Sequence record: PV467749.1
Length of the DNA stretch: 64,000 nt
Direction: 5' to 3' (one strand)
From: a phage
Both the position numbers and the translations under genes were made by a program. Shown in pieces: positions 1,054 through 43,900 of the stretch. Position 1 is the stretch's first letter. Every line of letters begins with the position of its first letter. A model generated the notes under the pieces. It was not told the DNA's origin. It saw nothing but the letters and a program-made list of their open reading frames with translations, and made no database searches.

Positions 1054-6288
<5,235 letters not shown>

Positions 6289-13809: not shown

Positions 13810-13849
13810 TACATTGTATCACTACTTTAAAAGTTGTCTCAATATTTTT

Positions 13850-15559
13850 TTAATAACCAATTGTTGTCCAGTACACGCCCAGTCCACGTGGATTATCATC
13901 ATTTGGGTTAGCTGCACCAACAGCAATCTGTGAGTTACTTAAAATATTACCATGTGATGCCCATGCAGCATCATTATCTGGACGACCTGATACTCTACCA
14001 GTTACTTGTAGATTTAAACAAGCATTTGGGTATGGTATAGGTAATGTTACAGTTACATACGAGTCATCCCCTACTGCCAAGTATCCCCACTGGGTTATCA
14101 TACCAGTATTGTTATCTTTATACCAGCCATTTTGTGTCAACGACGCAGAAGTTGTTGTGGTAGATATAGTTACATTACCACTTGCATCTGCCGCAGTACC
14201 GTTAACTGAACGTACAATGTTTTTACCAGATACTGTTGCAGAGTTAGAACTAACAACCAACGATGGAGAAGTTAGTACACCAGATGAGTTAATTGTAACT
14301 TCCGAACCACCATTACTTCTCAAACGTAATGTATTGTTAGATGAACTATGATAAATTGCTGCACGTTCACCATCAGTAGCGTTACGGAAGTAAAGTACTA
14401 ATGAAGTGTCATTTGAACGTATAGAAGCACTGTTAGCAATAGTCAATGAACCAGTCATTACATCACCAGTTTTAAGTACATAACGGGTGTTTGCAACTTT
14501 TTCACTCAAAGCAACGTTGGACTCAGCAATGTTATATAAGTATGCCACATTGAAGTGTGGTACGTCAATATTACTAATTCCGTGGCTGTGTGCTTGACCA
14601 CTACCAACGGTATTGGTTGAACCACTGAAACTATGCACGTGATCAGGTGCTTCGTTAATGTTATTAATTACAGTTGGGATTCCGTTGTCGTTACTGGATG
14701 TTAACGCATTAAGACCACTTCTGTCCATACCTTTTAGTGCCTGACTATGACCATGACGACCAGCAGCACCAGTAGTTCCACTGAAACTAAATGAGTGCGG
14801 TGGAAGTTGAGCAATTGATATCGCAGTACCACTAATTGATGCACTACTTGCAATCACACTATCAGTTTTAGTTACGCCTGATGTGGTAATGCCTTTCAAG
14901 TATGCTTCTTGGTTAAGATTCGGAACTTGTTTTGTGATTGTACCATTTTCACCAACCCATTGCCACCACATTCCATCAGCAAAACACCAACCATCAGAAG
15001 TTTTCCACGGAGAACCTTGTGAACCATTACGACCACTTTGACCATTGGTTACACCAGACATCTGTTCACGAATACTAGCAACAGTTTGTCCAGAAGTCAA
15101 TGAGTACTGGGTAATTGCACCAGGCTTCATTGAAGTATAAAGACCTGTTGGGCCAGTACCGCTACTTGATGGAGTAGGGAATACGATATTTAAATTCGTA
15201 CCACTAATGCTCGCACTTGGAACAGCACTACTACTATATGTTACAGTTTCAACTTTTAAATTCAGTTTACGGTTCACTTCATCGAGTGAAATACGGATTG
15301 GTTCAAGAATTGTATCAGTATCGTATACTGCAATCCAACTTGTCCCGTTGTGGTATTTTAACACCAACTCATTTCTATCAAATACCATCGCACCTTGCTC
15401 ACCTGCTGGCAATGCCTGTACTGGTAAAATGACAGAAGATGAATTAAAACGAATAGGTCTTGGATTAGTTGGTGTACCACCAAGCACTATTAGTTCTAAA
15501 GATCCATTAGCACCAGTACTAGTCATAGTATCCAGTGGGTTATTAAAACTTATGCTCAT
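13850..15559 (-). CDS. putative tail fibre / receptor-binding protein with HxH motifs
   Basis: 569 aa, Ser/Thr/Gly/Asn-rich; several HxH motifs (GRHGHSQ, PDHVHSF, QAHSHGI) reminiscent of metal-binding HxH motifs in T4 gp12/gp37 fibre tips; AAGGGA RBS. Confidence 0.45.
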   Translation of the reverse strand: MSISFNNPLDTMTSTGANGSLELIVLGGTPTNPRPIRFNSSSVILPVQALPAGEQGAMVFDRNELVLKYHNGTSWIAVYDTDTILEPIRISLDEVNRKLNLKVETVTYSSSAVPSASISGTNLNIVFPTPSSSGTGPTGLYTSMKPGAITQYSLTSGQTVASIREQMSGVTNGQSGRNGSQGSPWKTSDGWCFADGMWWQWVGENGTITKQVPNLNQEAYLKGITTSGVTKTDSVIASSASISGTAISIAQLPPHSFSFSGTTGAAGRHGHSQALKGMDRSGLNALTSSNDNGIPTVINNINEAPDHVHSFSGSTNTVGSGQAHSHGISNIDVPHFNVAYLYNIAESNVALSEKVANTRYVLKTGDVMTGSLTIANSASIRSNDTSLVLYFRNATDGERAAIYHSSSNNTLRLRSNGGSEVTINSSGVLTSPSLVVSSNSATVSGKNIVRSVNGTAADASGNVTISTTTTSASLTQNGWYKDNNTGMITQWGYLAVGDDSYVTVTLPIPYPNACLNLQVTGRVSGRPDNDAAWASHGNILSNSQIAVGAANPNDDNPRGLGVYWTTIGY

Positions 15560-15600: not shown

Positions 15601-15909
15601 CTATAGCAAGTCGTTTTCCATATCGTCAAGAACAGAATCAACGATGTTCGCTGCTATCTTCTTAGGCATCTTGAACCACTCGGTGTTAGGTTGCCTTACT
15701 GCGTTCATTTGTTTTAGTCTTTTGTGAATTTCTTTCTCTGCTAAACGTGCATCTTCAAAGTGTACTTCATGGTATACCACAAAATCTCTAAAAGGTGTAG
15801 CAGTTTGATATGTCCTTAAACGTTCTGTCATTTCAGATTTACTGGTAAATCCTATCTTAACATAATCAGGCCACGCATCATTTACTATAACATAACATAT
15901 CTGTGACAT
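15601..15909 (-). CDS. GIY-YIG superfamily, T5orf172-like domain protein
   Basis: YVIVNDAWPDYVKIGFTS...RLRTYQTATP...ARLAEKEIHKRLK...TEWFKMP fits the T5orf172 pattern; ATG 15909 with GGAGAT RBS. Confidence 0.6.
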   Translation of the reverse strand: MSQICYVIVNDAWPDYVKIGFTSKSEMTERLRTYQTATPFRDFVVYHEVHFEDARLAEKEIHKRLKQMNAVRQPNTEWFKMPKKIAANIVDSVLDDMENDLL

Positions 15910-15948
15910 AGAAAATATCTCCATCAGTAATATGAAGATATTTATTAA

Positions 15949-16299
15949 TCAAGTAATTCGGAAATTTACCCCAGCATCAATTAGGCGTTGGAATGGGTTT
16001 TGTGGCTCGAATTCAGAAGGAGTTTTTGAAATGTTCAGTACTGGAGCATCAGCATGTAACTTTGACATACGTTCTTTGTACTTATCTAAGTATTCTTCAT
16101 ATAACATATCTTCAGTGTTACTATCAAGTATGTCTTCAATAAATGAATCAATACTATAGTCCAGTCTATCATCATTATAATACAAAGTTTCACTAGCTTC
16201 ATCATAACCAACTAAAGTCCCGTATGGAACGTTAATCTCAATTTTTGAGTACTGACTCTTTAAGTACTCTTCTTTCTTAAAAATGTATACAGTTAACAT
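15949..16299 (-). CDS. hypothetical acidic protein (116 aa)
   Basis: ATG 16299 with AAGGAG RBS 9 nt upstream; track ORF starts at an upstream TTG. Confidence 0.5.
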   Translation of the reverse strand: MLTVYIFKKEEYLKSQYSKIEINVPYGTLVGYDEASETLYYNDDRLDYSIDSFIEDILDSNTEDMLYEEYLDKYKERMSKLHADAPVLNISKTPSEFEPQNPFQRLIDAGVNFRIT

Positions 16300-16322
16300 C
16301 CGTGTCAACTCCTTATGGTTGT

Positions 16323-17420
16323 TTACTTAAAAGTATTTACAATTTCTAAAACACTTTCAAGATACTTAGCATCAAAAGTTTCAGTAAATCCTGATGGCAA
16401 CTCTTCAGTACTTACCACACCACTTTCAATGTATTTCTTTATGAACTTTTCCAACAGTAATGGTTGATTGCCATCTTCAAAGTAGCGTTCTATAAGTACT
16501 TCATGCTCGAACTCAGAATTGCGGCTTTGTTCGTTAACACGGCGTTTCATATCACCAGTGATCCCATATTTGTACACCGTCTTGTTATTGTTAGTTAGTT
16601 TTTGTACATAGAAATATCCAGGTTTTGATGGTTGATATCCATATTCACCACATGATGGACATCCTTTACCAGCCATATGTGCTTTTGGTTGTTGGGAGAA
16701 GACACCATGAGTCGGACATACAATATCAATATAATTCTCGCTTAAAGTATATTCAACCAAGCTATAATCATACTTATGGTTATGGATAGGCGACACAAGT
16801 TCAATGAAACGTTCAGTGCTTCTTCCACCTTTACCAGAACATGTACCGCAGCCAGTTTTACCCTTCAATAAAGTTTGGGCTGAAACAGTCCATTCGTGTT
16901 TACCGCGTGTGCAATATACGGTAACTTCCGTTTTATTGTTAACATATTTGGTATTTGGAAATTCAAACGCACCACCATAGTTTTCTTTTACTTTTGCGAT
17001 GAATGATTCAGTACTGTATGCTTCATTTTTATTACAGACAGGACATCCCCTACCAGAAAGAAATTTGTTTGGTGTAATTTCAAAGTAATCGTTATGGTCT
17101 TCATCAGTGCAAAATAGTGTTACTTTTGTTATAGCGTTAGTGTAATTTAGTTTATCAAATTTGAATTTATCTTTACCAAATTTAGTTTCTACAGTACTGA
17201 TGAATGTGTCGTTGTTTGAACGCTGTGACATGTTTGAATAACATGATGCACATGTACATGCAATGTGACGAAGTGCAGACTTGGTGTTTTCTTTCCCACA
17301 CTTGTTACATTTTACTGTTGTTTTACTTGCCTTGAATACTAAAGTACTGAAGTCAAATTCTCCATACTTAGCAGTCATTTGGTTAATAAACTCTTCTTTG
17401 TTGATACTTACGTTTGGCAT
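16323..17420 (-). CDS. homing-endonuclease-like protein: tandem Cys/His zinc-ribbon modules + C-terminal GIY-YIG/T5orf172-like nuclease domain
   Basis: About four repeats of the module (K)YDYSLVEY-x8-IxCPTHGxFxQxPxxHxxGKGCPxC, then GYFYVQKL...VYKYGITGDMKRR...TETF resembling a GIY-YIG/T5orf172 domain; own consensus promoter; sits between capsid gene and downstream genes. Confidence 0.6.
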   Translation of the reverse strand: MPNVSINKEEFINQMTAKYGEFDFSTLVFKASKTTVKCNKCGKENTKSALRHIACTCASCYSNMSQRSNNDTFISTVETKFGKDKFKFDKLNYTNAITKVTLFCTDEDHNDYFEITPNKFLSGRGCPVCNKNEAYSTESFIAKVKENYGGAFEFPNTKYVNNKTEVTVYCTRGKHEWTVSAQTLLKGKTGCGTCSGKGGRSTERFIELVSPIHNHKYDYSLVEYTLSENYIDIVCPTHGVFSQQPKAHMAGKGCPSCGEYGYQPSKPGYFYVQKLTNNNKTVYKYGITGDMKRRVNEQSRNSEFEHEVLIERYFEDGNQPLLLEKFIKKYIESGVVSTEELPSGFTETFDAKYLESVLEIVNTFK

Positions 17421-17452
17421 ATTTTTGTCTCTTTGATAGCGTGTATGTGCGT

Positions 17453-17481
17453 ATTATACATAACCAAAAACATCATGTCAA
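17453..17481 (-). promoter_or_regulatory. consensus sigma70-like promoter (TTGACA, 17-nt spacer, TATAAT) for HEG-like gene
   Basis: Minus-strand TTGACA (plus 17476-17481) and TATAAT (plus 17453-17458) with 17-nt spacer, about 35 nt upstream of ATG 17420. Confidence 0.6.
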
Positions 17482-17491
17482 TGTTTTTAAT

Positions 17492-17526
17492 AAAAAAAGG
17501 GACTCCGAAGAGTCCCTATTGTTTTT
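17492..17526. terminator. bidirectional rho-independent terminator (A-run, GGGACTC-CGAA-GAGTCCC, T-rich)
   Basis: Perfect 7-bp stem; A7 upstream, TATTGTTTTT downstream; immediately after the major capsid gene. Confidence 0.8.
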
Positions 17527-17560
17527 AATTTCTTGATTAAATCTTTTAAATCGATTATAA

Positions 17561-18736
17561 TTACATGAAAGTAACGTTTTTGATAGCGATTTTGCTGTAG
17601 TAGTCAGCAGCGTTACCTAGTGAACTGGTGCTATCGGTCAACTGTACATAGCCATATCTGGTTAGAAAAGTTGTAACGAGTTCCCCAGTGTTAGGGTCCA
17701 TTACAGTACCGGAAGCCATTAGTGGGATGTATGGGCAATAGAACACACCAGCATCAGTTTCAGCGTTACCTTTGTAACCAATTAGGATATCTTCAACATC
17801 ACTTGCATAGGTATCAACGAAGATACGCATGGTGCTGTTTAGAGTACCAACAAATTTAACGTTAGTTGGAGCTTCGAAAGTACCTTCAGTAGTACGTGCA
17901 AAACTAGAAGTAGTTGCAGACTGTAGAATGGTTAGAGCGGTTGGAGAAACAACAGCCCAGTTCGCAGCACCACGTTTGGTACGACGAGCAACTTCGTTCG
18001 CTTGACGGTTGATTAGGGTAGCTAGAGCAGCGTGCTCGTCACCAACGAAGGTCGCAACACCAGTAACTTTAGATTGGTCATAAGTTACAGCAGCAGCACC
18101 AGGTAGTGCACGTAGACGGCTTAGTAGCTCTTGGTCGATTTCAACGGTAACTTCTTGAGCGATTGCAGCCATTAGTTCAGCTTCAACGTCAATACCATGT
18201 TGGGATTGTGCATCTTGTGCAGATTCAACAGTCCAACGTGCAGATAGACGACGAGATTTCGCTTCAACAGTTTCACGTAGAATACGGATGTTAACGCGAC
18301 GACCCATAGTACCTTCTAGTTGGCTAGTAGGAGCAGCTTGTGGGTTGCTGTTGTCTGCGTTTAGGTCACCAGTATAAGACTTAGCGATTTTGTATGGAGA
18401 AAGCATTTCTTCACCAGCGATAACACCAGGAGCGTTGTCAGCATATTGAACACGTAGGGTGTGGATCTGACCAACTGGGCCAGTCATTGGCTGAACACCG
18501 ATGATTTCGTTAGCGATTACGGTTGGCATAACACGACGCATAATTGGTAGAATCACTTTGTTTAGAGTAGCGATGTTACCAGCGGTGGTTGCACCAGAAG
18601 TAGCAGATTCGTTTAGCATTAGTTTACGATGGTTATCAAGTACGGTTTCCATTACGGACTTACGAGTACCTTGTAGACCTTCAACTAGTTTCTCTTTAAC
18701 TGCTACCCATTTGGATTCATTTAGTAGTTGTGACAT
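17561..18736 (-). CDS. gp23: major capsid protein (T4 gp23-like)
   Basis: Blocks IGVQPMTGPVGQIHTLRVQY, EAKSRRLSARW, RGAANWAVVSP, GYKGNAETDAGVFYCPYIPL parallel T4 gp23; synteny portal-core-protease-scaffold-capsid; AAGGAG RBS; TATAAATA upstream; biased codon usage. Confidence 0.9.
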   Translation of the reverse strand: MSQLLNESKWVAVKEKLVEGLQGTRKSVMETVLDNHRKLMLNESATSGATTAGNIATLNKVILPIMRRVMPTVIANEIIGVQPMTGPVGQIHTLRVQYADNAPGVIAGEEMLSPYKIAKSYTGDLNADNSNPQAAPTSQLEGTMGRRVNIRILRETVEAKSRRLSARWTVESAQDAQSQHGIDVEAELMAAIAQEVTVEIDQELLSRLRALPGAAAVTYDQSKVTGVATFVGDEHAALATLINRQANEVARRTKRGAANWAVVSPTALTILQSATTSSFARTTEGTFEAPTNVKFVGTLNSTMRIFVDTYASDVEDILIGYKGNAETDAGVFYCPYIPLMASGTVMDPNTGELVTTFLTRYGYVQLTDSTSSLGNAADYYSKIAIKNVTFM

Positions 18737-27854: not shown

Positions 27855-28340
27855 ATGAAGAAAAGATTAAAAGATAGTAAAGAAGCTGCAAACTATCGAA
27901 ATGAATTACTAAAGAAGCAAAAAGGAATTGATCCTATAATTAAGGAACCAATAACTAAGCCAGTACTTGATCACTATCACTTCGAGAATCAACATTGTCG
28001 CGGAGTACTCCAGAATGAGATAAACGCCTTTGAGGGTAAGGTTTCCAACGCATGGAACCGATATGGAAAGCATTTAACTGATATGCCATTACATGAAGTA
28101 CTAAGAAACCTTGCAGATTATCTTGAAAAGAACAATAATATCCCACTGGAAGAACAGGTGATTCATCACACGGCACTAACTGTGGATGTAAACAAGTTTA
28201 AAAGGCTCCCTGCAACGCGTCAGAACGAGATATTGGGGTTATGCGGTATAGAGCCATTACCTAATACAAAAGAACGCTCAAAGAGAGCTAGAGAGCTTAT
28301 TAAGAAAGGAATTCTCAATATAAATGAATACAAAAAATGA
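27855..28340 (+). CDS. endonuclease VII-like nuclease (T4 gp49 family), Cys-poor variant
   Basis: VLDHYHFENQHCRGVLQNEINAFEG parallels the T4 endonuclease VII catalytic core (LDHDHELNG...RGLLCNLCNAAEG) but the zinc-ligand cysteines are replaced; GGGGA RBS. Confidence 0.6.
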   Translation: MKKRLKDSKEAANYRNELLKKQKGIDPIIKEPITKPVLDHYHFENQHCRGVLQNEINAFEGKVSNAWNRYGKHLTDMPLHEVLRNLADYLEKNNNIPLEEQVIHHTALTVDVNKFKRLPATRQNEILGLCGIEPLPNTKERSKRARELIKKGILNINEYKK

Positions 28341-29028
28341 TATTTTTATAGATAAAGCAAATATAAAACATAACAACAAATATGAATATACATTAGTTGA
28401 GTATGTAAATAATTACACTAAAGTTAAAATTATATGTAAGAAACATGGTATGTTTTCACAAACTCCAAATCACCATTTAAAAGGAAGTGGATGTAATGAA
28501 TGTTACTTAGAAAGCAAGCACGATACTAAAGATGACTTCATAAAAAAATCCATGAAAGTTCATGGTGAATTATATGATTACTCAAATGTGATATATAAAT
28601 CTTCAAAGAAAAAAGTTGAAATTATATGCAATAAACATGGTTCTTTTTATCAGAGGCCACATGAACATATATCAGGTAAAGGTTGTTCAGAATGTGGAGT
28701 TGGTGGTTACAAGAGAAGTAAACCAGGTCGTTTATATGTATATGAAGTTTTACAAGACGACAAAACTATAGCATACAAATACGGAATAACTAATGGTACT
28801 ATTAATAATAGAAAATATTACCATGAGTATCACTCTAACTTAAAATTTAATTGTGTTTATGAACTATATGATGAAGATGGTAATGTTCCATATAATATAG
28901 AAAAAGCAATAAAAGCTGGCATGAAAAGTGTTTTTTTATCAAAAACTATTTTAGAAGTTGGGTATACCGAAACGATAGAACCGTCTTTATATGAAGATTT
29001 GATTAATATAATAAAAAAAGGGAGCTAA
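28324..29028 (+). CDS. homing-endonuclease-like protein: two Cys/His zinc-ribbon modules + GIY-YIG/T5orf172-like domain
   Basis: Modules KYEYTLVEY...IICKKHGMFSQTPNHHLKGSGCNEC and LYDYSNVIY...IICNKHGSFYQRPHEHISGKGCSEC, then GRLYVYEV...AYKYGITNG...NNRKYYHEY (GIY..YIG..R); overlaps Endo VII-like gene by 17 nt. Confidence 0.6.
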   Translation: MNTKNDIFIDKANIKHNNKYEYTLVEYVNNYTKVKIICKKHGMFSQTPNHHLKGSGCNECYLESKHDTKDDFIKKSMKVHGELYDYSNVIYKSSKKKVEIICNKHGSFYQRPHEHISGKGCSECGVGGYKRSKPGRLYVYEVLQDDKTIAYKYGITNGTINNRKYYHEYHSNLKFNCVYELYDEDGNVPYNIEKAIKAGMKSVFLSKTILEVGYTETIEPSLYEDLINIIKKGS

Positions 29029-29044
29029 GGCTCCCTTTCCTTTT
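29013..29044. terminator. bidirectional terminator (A-run, GGGAGC-TAAG-GCTCCC, T-rich) between convergent genes
   Basis: 6-bp GC stem whose loop contains the stop codon of the + gene; flanked by A7 and TTTCCTTTT. Confidence 0.7.
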
Positions 29045-29046
29045 AA

Positions 29047-31194
29047 TTAGAAAACATCATCCAGAGTTGTATACTCAACAGTACTGAAACCATCCTCTTT
29101 AACTACTTTTAGGATTTTCTCAGTCTTAGAAAGCAATTCTTCTCTGTGAGAAATGGCATATACATTCTTACCACGCACAGCAGCCATATCTTGGAAGATA
29201 GACCACACGCGAAGAACACCACTTGAATCAAGACCTTGGTCAATCATCTCATCAATGATAAGAATATTGATACTTTGATACAATGACTCATATGTATCAC
29301 GGAAAGCACAAGATAAAGCAATGTTTACCCTTGTACGCTCACCACGACTAAGCTGTTTATAGTCAAAGTACTGACCACTTTTCTCAATTTCTACACTCAA
29401 ATCATTCAAGAACACAACATTATGTTCAGAACCACACATATCAATGTAATATTGAAGACGTGTATTCAGATACGAAATGTTTTGTTCAATAATACGCTTA
29501 CGGACATAAGAATCCTTGTTTAACAACAATTTAACCAAGAAATCTTGGTGATTTGCCATCTTATCAAGGTTATTATAGTCACTATAGTCGATTGGTACTA
29601 ATGAATCGGTCGTAAGTGTATTAATTTGTCCAATAAATGTGTTAGTAGTTTTCAATTCACGATCTAATTGCTGTGATAATGAAGTTACTGTCATTTCTAA
29701 CTCTTTTACTTCAGATTTATTCAATGTATCTGGTACTTCTTGAAGAACATGTGCGTTCAGTTCTTCATATGATGACATAAGTTCATTAGCATAGATGTTA
29801 ATTTGCTCTTCTTCACTCTTTTTAATAAGTTCTTGAAGCTTATGCTCATGCATTTGTGCTTCAGTTAGTGTAGAATAGAATGTCACAGGCTTAGGTGGCA
29901 TATCAAAAATCTCAATACTATCAATTTCCTGAAGTATTGTTTCAATTTCAGAAGTGGAACTATCAATTTTCGATTGAAGTTCATTAATAGTATTTTGAAT
30001 TTTATCTTTAATAGACGAAGTATGTTCATTATGTTCTAATTCGGACATACAAAGTGGACATTTACTACTCTCCACTGTTGCTAATTTGTCCACCTCAGCA
30101 CGTAACGAACTCTCATGACCATTTAAAGCCACCTTTAATGCGTTAAGTTTTTGTTCTTTGAAACGTTTTTGGTTATTATTCTCTTTTAGAATACCCTCCA
30201 ACTGTTTCCATATCTCCAACTCATTGTGATTTTCTAATTCAGTACTGATATCAATAGTTTTTAGCTTATCAATACTTACATTTAATGCTAATTTTGCTGT
30301 TGCTAGTTCACGGTCATATGCATCATACTTCAAAGCTAACTCTTGCACACGTCTTTCTATTTGATCACGAGCAGCATTATGAATAAGAGCTTTCTCTTTC
30401 ACTTCTGCCAAATCATAGAGATCGTTGAAGTCTAAAGTTTTGTAGATATTCAATTCTTCAGTCAACTTAGATACTCTATTATTTTTATCAATCTCAAATT
30501 GGTTAGCTTGTTCTTGTAATGATTCAATACTTTTTTGAATACGTTCATTACTTGCAGCCACAGTTTCAATTTTGAACTTTTCTTGTTCAGCTAAACGTTT
30601 AGAATCTTTATACATATCCTTTAATAGTTCAGCTTTCTCTGTTAATTGTGTGATGCCCAGAAGTTCCTCAATCATATCACGTTGTTTCTGTGATGATAAT
30701 GCAAGAAACGGCTCTACGTTAGCATTAAGTACTACAATATGTTCAAATAGTAGTTGAGAAATCCCAAGAATCTCGTTTAGATCTTCTTGTGTATCTTTCT
30801 TCTCCCCTCTTGACTCATCTTCGACCTTATTATCTTTACCTAATGTAATAAAGTTGAAATACGTGGGACTTCTCCCACGCTCGACGAGATATTGTACACC
30901 ATCTTTCTCGAACTCAACAGATACTTCACAGTTTTTAGCATTAGTTTTATTAACTAAGTTTGGAATTTTGATATCGTTACCAATACTTTTTCCAAACAAA
31001 CCAAAAACTAAACCTTGAATGATGGCACTTTTACCAACACCATTACGGCGACCGGAACTATCACCACCTTCAATAACTGCATCATTGTTTTGACCAAGAA
31101 CTAACGATATATCAGCACCAGACAAATCAATTACTTGTGGTGCATTGCCAAATGAAAAGAAGTTCCTCATTGATATACGTGTAATGTTTAGCAC
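29047..31194 (-). CDS. gp46: recombination ATPase, SbcC/Rad50-like (T4 gp46-like)
   Basis: N-terminal P-loop NGVGKS, long coiled-coil with CPLC zinc-hook-like motif, C-terminal QLSRGERTR signature and ILIIDE Walker B. Confidence 0.85.
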   Translation of the reverse strand: MLNITRISMRNFFSFGNAPQVIDLSGADISLVLGQNNDAVIEGGDSSGRRNGVGKSAIIQGLVFGLFGKSIGNDIKIPNLVNKTNAKNCEVSVEFEKDGVQYLVERGRSPTYFNFITLGKDNKVEDESRGEKKDTQEDLNEILGISQLLFEHIVVLNANVEPFLALSSQKQRDMIEELLGITQLTEKAELLKDMYKDSKRLAEQEKFKIETVAASNERIQKSIESLQEQANQFEIDKNNRVSKLTEELNIYKTLDFNDLYDLAEVKEKALIHNAARDQIERRVQELALKYDAYDRELATAKLALNVSIDKLKTIDISTELENHNELEIWKQLEGILKENNNQKRFKEQKLNALKVALNGHESSLRAEVDKLATVESSKCPLCMSELEHNEHTSSIKDKIQNTINELQSKIDSSTSEIETILQEIDSIEIFDMPPKPVTFYSTLTEAQMHEHKLQELIKKSEEEQINIYANELMSSYEELNAHVLQEVPDTLNKSEVKELEMTVTSLSQQLDRELKTTNTFIGQINTLTTDSLVPIDYSDYNNLDKMANHQDFLVKLLLNKDSYVRKRIIEQNISYLNTRLQYYIDMCGSEHNVVFLNDLSVEIEKSGQYFDYKQLSRGERTRVNIALSCAFRDTYESLYQSINILIIDEMIDQGLDSSGVLRVWSIFQDMAAVRGKNVYAISHREELLSKTEKILKVVKEDGFSTVEYTTLDDVF

Positions 31195-40127: not shown

Positions 40128-40157
40128 AAAAGCACTCTTCGGGGTGCTTTTCTTTTT
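40128..40157 (+). terminator. rho-independent terminator with UUCG tetraloop (AGCACTC-TTCG-GGGTGCT, T-run)
   Basis: 7-bp stem (one G-U), UUCG loop, followed by TTTTCTTTTT after the gp25-like gene. Confidence 0.75.
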
Positions 40158-40194
40158 GGATAAATATTTCTATATATAATTTATAGGATGATGT

Positions 40195-40959
40195 ATGAAA
40201 TATGCAACAACCAGATCAACAAAATACAAATTTGTAACCAACGCCATTAGAGTGCATGGTATGCGTTATGATTATAGTATGGTTAAATATCATAATGCTA
40301 AAACAAAGGTGTGGATCGGATGTGAGAAGCATGGGTTTTTCCTACAAACACCAAATGACCATACATGTGGCAAAGGATGCATGGAATGCTCGGTTGAGTA
40401 TAATGCGAATCGTCAGAAAAGTCCACAGAACTTTATAAATTTTCTTAATAAGGCTAATTTAAAGTTTAGAAATAAATTTGATTATAGCACAGTAGAATAT
40501 GTTAATAATAAAACTCACATATCCATAATATGCCCAACACATGGGTCTTTTTTACAAAGACCTGATAATCATTTGTCAAGTAAGTATGGTTGTGAGAAAT
40601 GTATGATTGAATCAACGCAATCAAAAGCAGTAACTGATATTGAAAAAATGATATCTTTCACTAATTATGTTAAAGAAAAGCGTTTTGATGATTGTAGAAA
40701 CATATTAACTTTGCCATTTGATTTTTATATTGAAGATTTAAACTTGTGTATTGAATATGATGGTGAACAACACTTTCGATGTTCTGAACATTGGGGTGGT
40801 GACAAATCGCTAAAACAAACTCAACACAATGATAAAATTAAAAACACGTACTGTGCTGACCATGATATTAACTTACTTCGTATCAAATACGATGAAGATC
40901 ATATCATCGTACTAAAAAAGTACTTTTATGATAATTTTAACATAATATTAAAGGATTAA
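40195..40959 (+). CDS. homing-endonuclease-like protein: two Cys/His zinc-ribbon modules + C-terminal PD-(D/E)XK-like domain
   Basis: Modules RYDYSMVKY...IGCEKHGFFLQTPNDHTCGKGCMEC and KFDYSTVEY...IICPTHGSFLQRPDNHLSSKYGCEKC; C-terminus LPFDFYIEDLNLCIEYDGEQH...KIKNTY resembles DUF559/Vsr-like PD-(D/E)XK nucleases; inserted between gp25- and gp6-like genes. Confidence 0.6.
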   Translation: MKYATTRSTKYKFVTNAIRVHGMRYDYSMVKYHNAKTKVWIGCEKHGFFLQTPNDHTCGKGCMECSVEYNANRQKSPQNFINFLNKANLKFRNKFDYSTVEYVNNKTHISIICPTHGSFLQRPDNHLSSKYGCEKCMIESTQSKAVTDIEKMISFTNYVKEKRFDDCRNILTLPFDFYIEDLNLCIEYDGEQHFRCSEHWGGDKSLKQTQHNDKIKNTYCADHDINLLRIKYDEDHIIVLKKYFYDNFNIILKD

Positions 40960-40963
40960 TACA

Positions 40964-43900
40964 ATGTCACAACAAAAAAGACAGTCTAATTTATATAGTG
41001 GTGAGGATTGGACTCAAGTATATGAAAGTTTCTATAAAATCAATCTTACGGCATATGATTTTGATACCATTCGTCAAAGTATGATTGATTATCTACGTGC
41101 TACGTACCCCGATTCTTTCAACGATTGGATCGAAAACGACCAGTTTATCTTTATTCTAGATACCATTTCTATGCTAGGCCAGAACTTAGCATTCCGCATG
41201 GACTTAAACACCCGTGAGAACTTCCTAGATACTGCTACTCGTCGTGCATCAGTACTGAAACTCGCAAAAATGATTTCTTACTCTCCACGCCGTTCATATC
41301 CAGGTCGTGCAGTTGCTAAATTAACAGAAATAAAAACCAACCAAGACGTTCGTAATAGTTTTAACGAATCACTTAAGGATAAAATCATTCGTTGGAATGA
41401 CCCAATGGACACAAACTGGTATGAGAACTTCATTCTAGTTATGAACAGTTCATTTGTCAGTACTAACCAGTTTGGTAATCCGGTTAAACGTATCGATATC
41501 AATGGTGTTTCTCGTCAGCTATATCGTATGAATACAATTCCAATGTCAGCACCAAGTCTTCCATTCACAGCTACAGTTAATGGTGAATCGATGACATTTG
41601 AAGTTGTCAACCCTGATATTACCGCAGTTGGTGTTGAAGAGCGTCACCCTGAACCACAAGAGCAAAAATATATCGTTTATCAGAATGATGGTAACGGATT
41701 TAGTTCTCCAAATACTGGTTTCTTCGTTTATTTTGTTCAAGGGACATTGACATACCAAGATTACCAATATAATATTCGTGAAGAAAACCGTATCCAAGAC
41801 ATCAACGTAGATAATATCAACGAAACTGATGTTTGGGTTCAGGAAATCAACGAAGATGGTATTGTACGTACTAAATGGACCAAAGTTCCATCTATGGAAA
41901 GTATCGCATACAATACTGTTAACCGTCAACTAAAAACAATCTTTGCTGTCACAACTCGTGATAAAGACCAGATTACTATTAAGTATCCTGATTCTCGTAG
42001 TGGTGTTGTTCCTCGTGGGACATATCGTGTATGGTATCGTGTTAGTAATGGTGAAACATACAACATTAAAACGTCTGAAATCCAGAACAAAAGTGTAAAA
42101 TACACCTATAGAACCAAAACACAATCAAGCTACGAATCCAGTACTTTGGATATTCGTTTCACATTGCAATATGAATCAGATCGTGCACAAAGTGCAGAAA
42201 CAATTGAACAAATTAAGGCTCGTGCTCCACAAATGTATTACACTCAAAACCGTTTTGTTAACGGCGAAGACTATAACATTGCTCCGTTGAGTTTGGGTAA
42301 CACAGTTCTTAAATCTAAAGCAATTAACCGTTTATATAGTGGACAGTCACGATTCATTGATATTAATGATCCAACTGGTAAGTATCAAAACACTGATGTG
42401 TTTAGTGATGATGGATCAATGTATCAAGAAAACACACAATTTAATAAATCTTTACAATTACCAACTACCAAAACAAATGCTAGTATTGTAATTGATAATA
42501 TTCAGCCATTGATTGGTGAGAATGCTGTAATCCAACGTTATCAAGCATATCCACCGAATACAATTGGTATTGAAATTCAACAAAAATGGACACCTGAATA
42601 CAATTCTAATTACGCAACTAATACGTATGGTCGTATTATGGGGGCAACAGGTAACGTATTCGGAAATTATCAAGTTGGTACGTTGATTAAGTTTTCAAAT
42701 GCCGGAACTACTGTGTGGGCTAGTATTGTTAGTGTTCTTGATAATGGATATTACGTTCTAAGTACTTCAGTTTCATCAAATATGCAAGCACAAGAGTACA
42801 TTTTACAATACAGAACACGTTTTAATAGTGTCGAAGTGCAAGCAATCGCCGCAATGCTTGATAAAAAGACAGATTTTGTTATTATTCATGATAAAGAAAC
42901 AACTTCTTGGATTCCATTAGAAATCAGTACTGATGAAGATACTATTTCTTATAATGGAAATGAAGTTCTTGTTATGATTAACATCAAATATACTGCTGAA
43001 ACATGGGAATTTGATGCGAATGGCGTTGAATATGTGTTCGTTGGTGGTGATAAAGTTCGTTTTTACTTCGTTTCTTCTAAAAAGATAACTGATATTAGTA
43101 CTGGTAGTGTTCAAAGTGACAAAATTGAAATTTTATCATCAAATACCACAAGCAATAGTAATGCTGGGTTGACAAGTAACATAGATTTCCAAATTTATGA
43201 CACAATTCAACAAGAAAACGGGTATCTTGATGGTTCTCGTGTGGTTATCACCTCTGAAAACGTTGATAGTAATGGAATCCCACTAGAACCTAATCAATTC
43301 AGAGAAATTGTACCAAATTGGACTGGTGAAGATTCAGTTAAATATGGTGGTATATTGGTTTTCCAAGAAAACGATGATTTCACTATATCAGTACTGTCAT
43401 TACCGAACGATACTTTCACTATTCTTGATTCTTCATGGGCTTATACAATGGATCAGGCACTTGCAGAAACTAATGCGTATAAGAGAAGTGAATTTGTTCG
43501 CAACAATGCTATTCGCTCAACAACATTGAGTGGTATCTATAGTAAAGGTTCAGGCTTTATGGTTGGCTTTAAATATGATGGTAAATATTACTTCATTGAA
43601 CAAACTGTTGGTAATAATAATGACCGTTTAAACCAATTAATTGAGAACTTGACCTATTCTGATGATACAACTGCTGCAACTCCTGAACTTGCGTTTTATC
43701 GTGCTATTGTTAATATCGGTACTAATGCTGATGTTAACCAAAAGTTAGATTATTATGGTTATAAAGATGTAACTTCACAATATACCGTAAAAACGAATGC
43801 AAGAACTGGTATTGATTTCCACTGGAAACATTATGCACCAGATGATAATCGCATTGACCCAAGTAGAACAAACTTGATTGACATGTATGTATTAACCAAT

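Follow-up and report, generated by a model that had tools for sequence, protein, structure and literature searches.

[quoted passage not shown] The window, the whole 64,000-nucleotide stretch of record PV467749.1, belongs by DNA similarity to an Asteriusvirus of the 121Q/PBECO4 type, a jumbo coliphage type of ~350-380 kb. Gene A (16323..17420, minus strand) encodes 365 aa, with four zinc modules and a C-terminal T5orf172 domain of the GIY-YIG superfamily. Gene B (28324..29028, plus strand) encodes 234 aa, with two modules and a T5orf172 domain, and gene C (40195..40959, plus strand) encodes 254 aa, with two modules and a Vsr-like / EDxHD-like PD-(D/E)xK domain. A first-pass annotation had proposed these three open reading frames, with two to four module copies each, as free-standing homing endonucleases. 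The frames and the copy numbers were confirmed, and the proposed role is supported by residue conservation, by presence and absence of the genes in ~99%-identical relatives and by one-sided substitution tracts in flanking DNA.

The zinc-module arrays occupy 16635..17402 in A (minus strand, aa 7-262), 28333..28710 in B (plus strand, aa 4-129) and 40222..40617 in C (plus strand, aa 10-141). Individual copies were delimited at aa ~7-66, 70-134, 136-199 and 201-262 of A (A1 to A4), 4-65 and 68-129 of B (B1 and B2), and 10-70 and 79-141 of C (C1 and C2). The repeat unit measures ~60-65 aa and consists of an N-terminal helix (FIxKaxxxHG) followed by a core of ~43 aa with the consensus xYDYSxVxY ... 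IxC-x2-HGxFxQxPxxHLxGKGC-x2-C. The module length of ~43 aa given initially holds for this conserved core, but not for the repeat unit. Alignment of the eight copies identified one Phe and three Cys as invariant; the fourth ligand position is occupied by His in every copy except A1, which has Cys. The single Cys/His motif first described fits the five copies, A4 included, that read C-x2-H...C-x2-C, but not A1 (C-x2-C...C-x2-C), nor A2 and A3 (C-x4-H...C-x2-C). Candidate zinc ligands are kept at all four positions in all eight modules, arranged as elsewhere in the family in two pairs ~15-26 residues apart, and these positions predict that the eight modules may bind zinc. Local alignment against 200 shuffles gave pairwise z-scores of 19.6-25.3 among A4, B1, B2, C1 and C2, of 6.9-15.2 for pairs involving A2 or A3, and of 1.1 to 9.7 for A1, the most divergent module. 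No further module copies were found in the 64 kb window by a six-frame HMM scan.

When modules were scanned singly against Pfam, five of the eight matched DUF4379, three DUF723 and two CapR. At the level of whole proteins, C exceeded the gathering cut-off of DUF723 (31.9 versus 20.9 bits) and B that of DUF4379 (29.0 versus 24.5 bits); A lay below the module-family gathering cut-offs, and close homologues of A have precomputed PF05265 matches. By these profile matches, the modules of A, B and C can be assigned to the CapR/DUF723/DUF4379 zinc-module family. In the two AlphaFold models, both confident (pLDDT above 91), a beta-hairpin turn holds the first ligand pair, and the second pair lies where a helix begins. 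This placement of ligands corresponds to a treble clef and not to the classical zinc ribbon originally suggested, in keeping with the Pfam description of DUF4379 as a 'probable treble clef zinc finger'. The search for solved structures gave no match for the zinc module, and the fold is read only from the secondary structure of the models. CapR, a satellite PLE repressor of the ICP1 capsid operon, binds DNA in gel shifts in a manner dependent on four Cys (PMC8096241). Its zinc module is of the kind seen in A, B and C, but CapR works as a repressor and lacks a nuclease head; its ligands read CxxC...CxC, compared with C-x2-H...C-x2-C as the commonest pattern here (5/8). By analogy with CapR, the one case with an experimental demonstration, the modules of A, B and C would be expected to bind DNA.

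The C-terminal domains had been assigned as GIY-YIG/T5orf172-like in two of the proteins and PD-(D/E)XK (Vsr-like) in the third, and these assignments proved correct. The nuclease domain of A (16326..16634, minus strand, aa 263-365) carries the motifs GYFYV, YKYGIT, KRR and FTETF, and that of B spans 28711..29025 (plus strand, aa 130-234). The Pfam T5orf172 model matched A weakly (E = 4e-3, 17.9 bits, cut-off 20) and gave no match to B. The head of A scored 156.7 bits against the family profile, and PHROG 681 ('endonuclease') spans the full length of both A (phrog_681, E = 1e-76) and B (4e-50). T5orf172 motifs are visible across the heads as GYFYV/RLYVY, YKYGIT and (F/Y)TET, and these heads show the GIY-YIG alpha/beta fold. 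Across 45 T5orf172-type homologues, Y138, G154, I155, R163, E193 and E216 (B numbering) are invariant; judged by motif position, R163 and E216 would be the GIY-YIG catalytic Arg and Glu. Odn, a T5orf172 protein, cleaves DNA in vitro, and its activity is abolished by E180A, a change in the Glu matched by motif position to E216 of B.

Near A lies the stand-alone T5orf172-like gene noticed in the first-pass annotation. This gene, D (15601..15924, minus strand, or to 15909 if translation begins at the second Met), encodes a 107-aa T5orf172/MUG113 protein (phrog_15085) that matched Pfam T5orf172 above the gathering score (E = 3e-13, 50.6 bits). The module HMM did not match D, which is without a DNA-binding module. 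Between D and A, a 116-aa open reading frame (15949..16299, minus strand) gave no Pfam/NCBIfam match.

The head of C (40618..40956, plus strand, aa 142-254) has the Vsr-like PD-(D/E)xK catalytic fold. Structure comparison ranked first the catalytic domain of I-Bth0305I (3r3p; 9.7, 90/98 residues aligned), then E. coli Vsr (1cw0; 9.5) and a DUF559 protein (3hrl; 8.9), followed by RAP domains, VRR-NUC, TnsA and Hjc. D176, E187, D189, H193, D213 and K216 are invariant among 51 homologues of C. The spacing between D176 and H193 is 17 residues, the same as between D196 and H213 of I-Bth0305I, an active homing endonuclease in which these were the two residues mutated to inactivate the enzyme. Together, the structural matches and this spacing identify C as a Vsr-like PD-(D/E)xK nuclease. 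The label 'HNH endonuclease' attached to its orthologue gp584 of 121Q and to phrog_559 is consequently wrong, these proteins being Vsr-like. Searches of PDB sequences, with single proteins or the 51-sequence profile, returned nothing relevant, and NCBIfam had a model for none of the proteins; the heads are tied to known nucleases by structure comparison only. Alignment of homologues showed the expected catalytic residues to be retained in both head classes, contrary to the degeneracy that the first-pass annotation had named as grounds for refutation. Nuclease activity of A, B and C would follow by analogy with Odn and I-Bth0305I, the two enzymes for which it is experimental.

Comparison with relatives lacking the insertions, as the first-pass annotation had advised, revealed empty sites in fEgEco12 (for A) and in vB_Ec-M-J (for B and C). 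The latter was the best DNA match, with 98.5% identity over 4 kb around A and 99.06% over 48 kb; between 3510 and 53476 of the window, the only indels relative to it are B, C and a tail-fibre segment. All three genes are therefore patchily present, at precise sites, in ~99%-identical relatives. The tail-fibre indel (13828..14273; 446 bp versus 882 bp in vB_Ec-M-J) overlaps the 3' end of the tail-fibre gene (13850..15559, minus strand) and is probably a swap of a host-range determinant. Elsewhere in the window, the large terminase subunit is apparently split (2391..3728, minus strand, up to ~4030): a 445-aa open reading frame matches Terminase_6N only from profile position 33, and at this location the annotation of vB_Ec-M-J has two overlapping genes, 'terminase large subunit A' and 'B'. 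A frameshift, an intron or an artefact of annotation could explain the split.

Cassette A (16300..17491) is a 1192-bp insertion replacing 41 bp of the empty site of fEgEco12, which lacks A though its flanks are 99% identical. At least 12 relatives carry A at this site, and homologues at the same locus in many relatives share 87-97% amino acid identity. A perfect sigma-70 consensus promoter (TTGACA-17-TATAAT, 12/12; 17453..17481, minus strand) lies inside the cassette, 33 nt upstream of the ATG of A. Just outside the cassette is a resident terminator hairpin of the major capsid gene (17498..17517, minus strand), also present in the empty-site relative. The cassette supplies a new ribosome-binding site for the downstream gene; that of the 15949..16299 frame is cassette-derived here and differs in sequence in the empty-site relative.

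Cassette B (28215..29010) stands in place of 114 bp of vB_Ec-M-J. The actual point of insertion lies three codons ahead of the endonuclease VII stop, such that the ATG of B overlaps a new endonuclease VII stop and the end of B (...KKGS and stop) is the old one. B ends inside a resident bidirectional terminator hairpin (29013..29042) located between it and a convergent SbcC-like gene. None of 50,697 phage records contained a close DNA relative of B, and an identical protein turned up in two places only, a record labelled E. coli and a contig of 353 kb. Cassette C (40182..40947) lies between the gp25-like and gp6-like baseplate genes, where it takes the place of 28 bp present in vB_Ec-M-J, and the last codons of C rebuild the ribosome-binding site of the downstream gene. 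Upstream of C lie a resident terminator-like hairpin (40128..40151, plus strand) and an AT-rich promoter-like stretch (40152..40181), also resident, since the empty site has the same stretch. C is present in 121Q, JP4 and JNE01 and absent from ~30 other relatives, including the closest ones. 121Q itself was ruled out as the direct donor of C and its flank, identity being only ~75-92%. The GC content of cassettes B (28.3%) and C (30.7%), compared with 36.5% for the window, suggests that they may have originated in AT-richer phages.

These maps bear on two local signals claimed earlier for each gene. A position next to a terminator holds for A, B and C, but a promoter-like signal of its own belongs to A alone: B overlaps the endonuclease VII stop, and C lies 3' of promoter-like sequence that is resident at the empty site.

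Each cassette is flanked, on one side only, by a tract of clustered substitutions in the neighbouring conserved gene, beyond which the DNA is 98-100% identical. The tract beside A (17553..17680) is at the 3' end of the major capsid gene. Compared with fEgEco12, 15 of the 16 differences in this 1176-nt gene fall at gene nt 1057-1119, with no amino acid change; all substitutions of the tract within the gene are synonymous, and two more lie just past the stop. We consider 17553..17680 a candidate co-conversion tract or target-site region. The tract beside B (28000..28214) covers the 3' part (last third) of the endonuclease VII gene, where identity drops to 68-73% in surroundings of 98-100% and amino acid changes are present; the relative TH47 is 99% identical to the window over this tract up to ~28100, then 87%. 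Beside C, the tract (40981..41212) is at the 5' end of the gp6-like baseplate gene and is nearly all synonymous: 24 of the 30 differences in the 1500 nt compared are within the first 249 nt, with one amino acid change. One-sided tracts such as these would be expected of free-standing homing endonuclease genes, either by co-conversion from a diverged donor or through target-site immunity. Ordinary recombination with diverged phages, ending at these sites, could also generate them; the nuclease gene would then mark a boundary of exchange without cutting. Homing endonuclease genes at the boundaries of sequence exchange are a published theme (PMC10448857).

Under the homing reading, the N-terminal array of two to four zinc modules would read an extended DNA site, like beads on a string, and the C-terminal head, T5orf172/GIY-YIG in A and B or Vsr-like/EDxHD-like PD-(D/E)xK in C, would cut nearby. 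During mixed infection, the enzyme would cleave the allele lacking the gene, within the adjacent conserved gene or close to it. The putative targets are the genes for the major capsid protein (A), endonuclease VII (B) and the gp6-like baseplate protein (C). Recombinational repair from the genome carrying the gene would then copy across both the nuclease gene and a short flanking stretch. The seg and mob genes of T4 are intergenic nuclease genes of patchy distribution that cleave in a neighbouring conserved gene and co-convert flanking markers. The biology proposed for A, B and C resembles that of T4 seg/mob and I-TevI, which likewise combine a nuclease with a DNA-binding region (PMC10448857, PMC8263062). 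Seg and I-TevI, however, have an N-terminal GIY-YIG head and C-terminal NUMODs, one small zinc finger or a helix-turn-helix, whereas in A, B and C the order is reversed and DNA binding would be entrusted to an array of repeated zinc modules.

One or more of these genes, most plausibly A, might instead have been domesticated and be maintained for the DNA binding of its array, as a transcriptional regulator in the manner of CapR or as a weapon against rival phages or satellites in the manner of Odn. CapR is indeed a repressor derived from this kind of gene, and in Odn a T5orf172 nuclease has been turned against a satellite. A could moreover be fixed, given its occurrence at the same locus in many relatives and its perfect promoter of early type. 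Yet the nuclease head of A is complete and retains the Arg and Glu that are invariant in the family, and A carries no RepA_N-like or other borrowed targeting domain. Its absence from fEgEco12 and the 15 synonymous changes clustered in the adjacent capsid gene also speak for mobility, as does the variation in module number between alleles, a feature of mobile genes. We therefore regard domestication as improbable. Still less credible is the view that the genes are catalytically dead, decaying remnants, with patchiness arising from loss and tracts from unrelated recombination: a cycle of invasion, fixation and decay is expected of homing endonuclease genes, and A1 is divergent with low z-scores, but the three frames are intact and full length relative to homologues, all family-invariant nuclease residues and all four ligand positions in 8/8 modules are retained, the models are confident, and the GC content of B and C (28-31% versus 36.5%), with B lacking a close DNA relative in the phage collection, fits recent gain.

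The idea of exchangeable nuclease heads on a shared array, advanced in the first-pass annotation as domain shuffling, is supported by the Vsr-type modules of B and by a second gene at its site. All 356 homologues retrieved with A, B and C contain the module; the head is Vsr-like in 227 and of the T5orf172 type in 70, and the remainder match neither profile. Nearest-neighbour comparison grouped the modules of A with T5orf172-type proteins, whereas for the two modules of B, Vsr-type proteins made up 21/30 and 20/30 of the top matches, at 60-70% identity. TH47 has, at the exact site of B between the endonuclease VII and SbcC-like genes, a T5orf172 gene of 340 aa (MT446416 1847..2869) whose head is 46% identical to that of B. 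Since its modules are closest to Vsr-type proteins and its head resembles that of the TH47 gene at the same site, B is probably a chimera of a Vsr-family-type module array and a T5orf172 head. The Cys-rich N-terminal region of the TH47 protein gave no BLASTP match to the B array and no match to the module profile. Across the insertion, the 3' end of the TH47 SbcC gene (window 28900-29300) is 71-77% identical to the window, a divergent tract on the other side.

If B and the TH47 enzyme both act on the same empty allele, it is conceivable, though we hold this only tentatively, that the head sets much of the site choice, or that arrays can swap in place with homing kept. Were this true, the B/TH47 locus would be a natural experiment on how specificity is split between head and array in a very large and almost unstudied enzyme class.

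Variation in array length was observed at the site of A. WPEC5 encodes there an allele of 305 aa with three modules (PV654397 1824..2741), which lacks module 1 and has diverged in modules 2-3 but closely resembles A in its last module and head: a natural case of array-length variation at one locus. DNA similarity among A, B and C is confined to stretches of 19-84 bp with 71-95% identity and is thus negligible, leading us to reject recent exchange among them within the genome.

The idea of modular nucleases is correct and already published for both architectures (PMC10448857, PMC12350094). Barth, Dunham and Seed (2023) reported repeated CapR/DUF723/DUF4379 zinc fingers in 200 of 229 T5orf172 homing endonuclease genes, and described a 'beads on a string' design with domain shuffling in T5orf172 genes of ICP1 and other phages (PMC10448857). 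A and B resemble those genes in their N-terminal tandem zinc modules and C-terminal T5orf172 domain, in being free-standing, beside essential genes and at exchange boundaries, and in showing allelic variation in repeat number and domain swaps. They differ in their hosts, the Asteriusvirus jumbo coliphages, and in that B, with its Vsr-type modules, would represent a swap across nuclease classes, whereas the published swaps are among T5orf172 genes and with RepA_N.

For the other head class, a 2025 NAR study described proteins with 3-5 CapR/DUF4379/DUF723-like domains (~60 aa) followed by an EDxHD/Vsr-like head, as a 'large unrecognized outgroup of EDxHD/Vsr HEGs' (PMC12350094). C likewise has ~60-aa CapR/DUF4379/DUF723-like modules followed by a C-terminal Vsr-like domain of ~100 aa, but only two of these modules, and it is free-standing between baseplate genes rather than inside group I/II introns. 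The EDxHD prototype I-Bth0305I (PDB 3r3p, PMC3239194) is intron-encoded and binds DNA through NUMOD2/helix-turn-helix, neither of which applies to C. In place of a NUMOD2/helix-turn-helix N-terminal region C has its two zinc modules, which place it in the CapR-like outgroup and not in the core EDxHD family. C shares 19% sequence identity with I-Bth0305I, which its sequence profile fails to detect.

Searched against 1.84 billion proteins, a profile built from the eight modules matched 36,980 cluster representatives (E <= 0.001), in which a single protein can contain as many as 14 copies. Of the 150 best matches listed, 147 were new, and among these 68 have a Vsr-type head and 26 a T5orf172 head, the others including further Vsr/MTES_1575-like heads. 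One metagenomic protein of 1218 aa (P0427) combines six modules with a superfamily-2 helicase (ResIII/DEAD/Helicase_C) and a methyltransferase domain, indicating that the array is not restricted to nuclease heads.

The overall significance of these findings is modest. What is new are three well-delimited jumbo-coliphage members of the class, the matching empty-site alleles and B as a probable chimera across head classes. For annotation, the analysis makes plain that genes of the C type are widely mislabelled 'HNH endonuclease'. Each insertion can be paired with the empty-site allele of a sequenced relative and with a candidate target region, providing ready substrates for biochemistry, and A, B and C could become the first biochemical test cases of module-array nucleases outside the ICP1 system. 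Such modular arrays may be programmable DNA readers, which would give well-defined test cases practical value.
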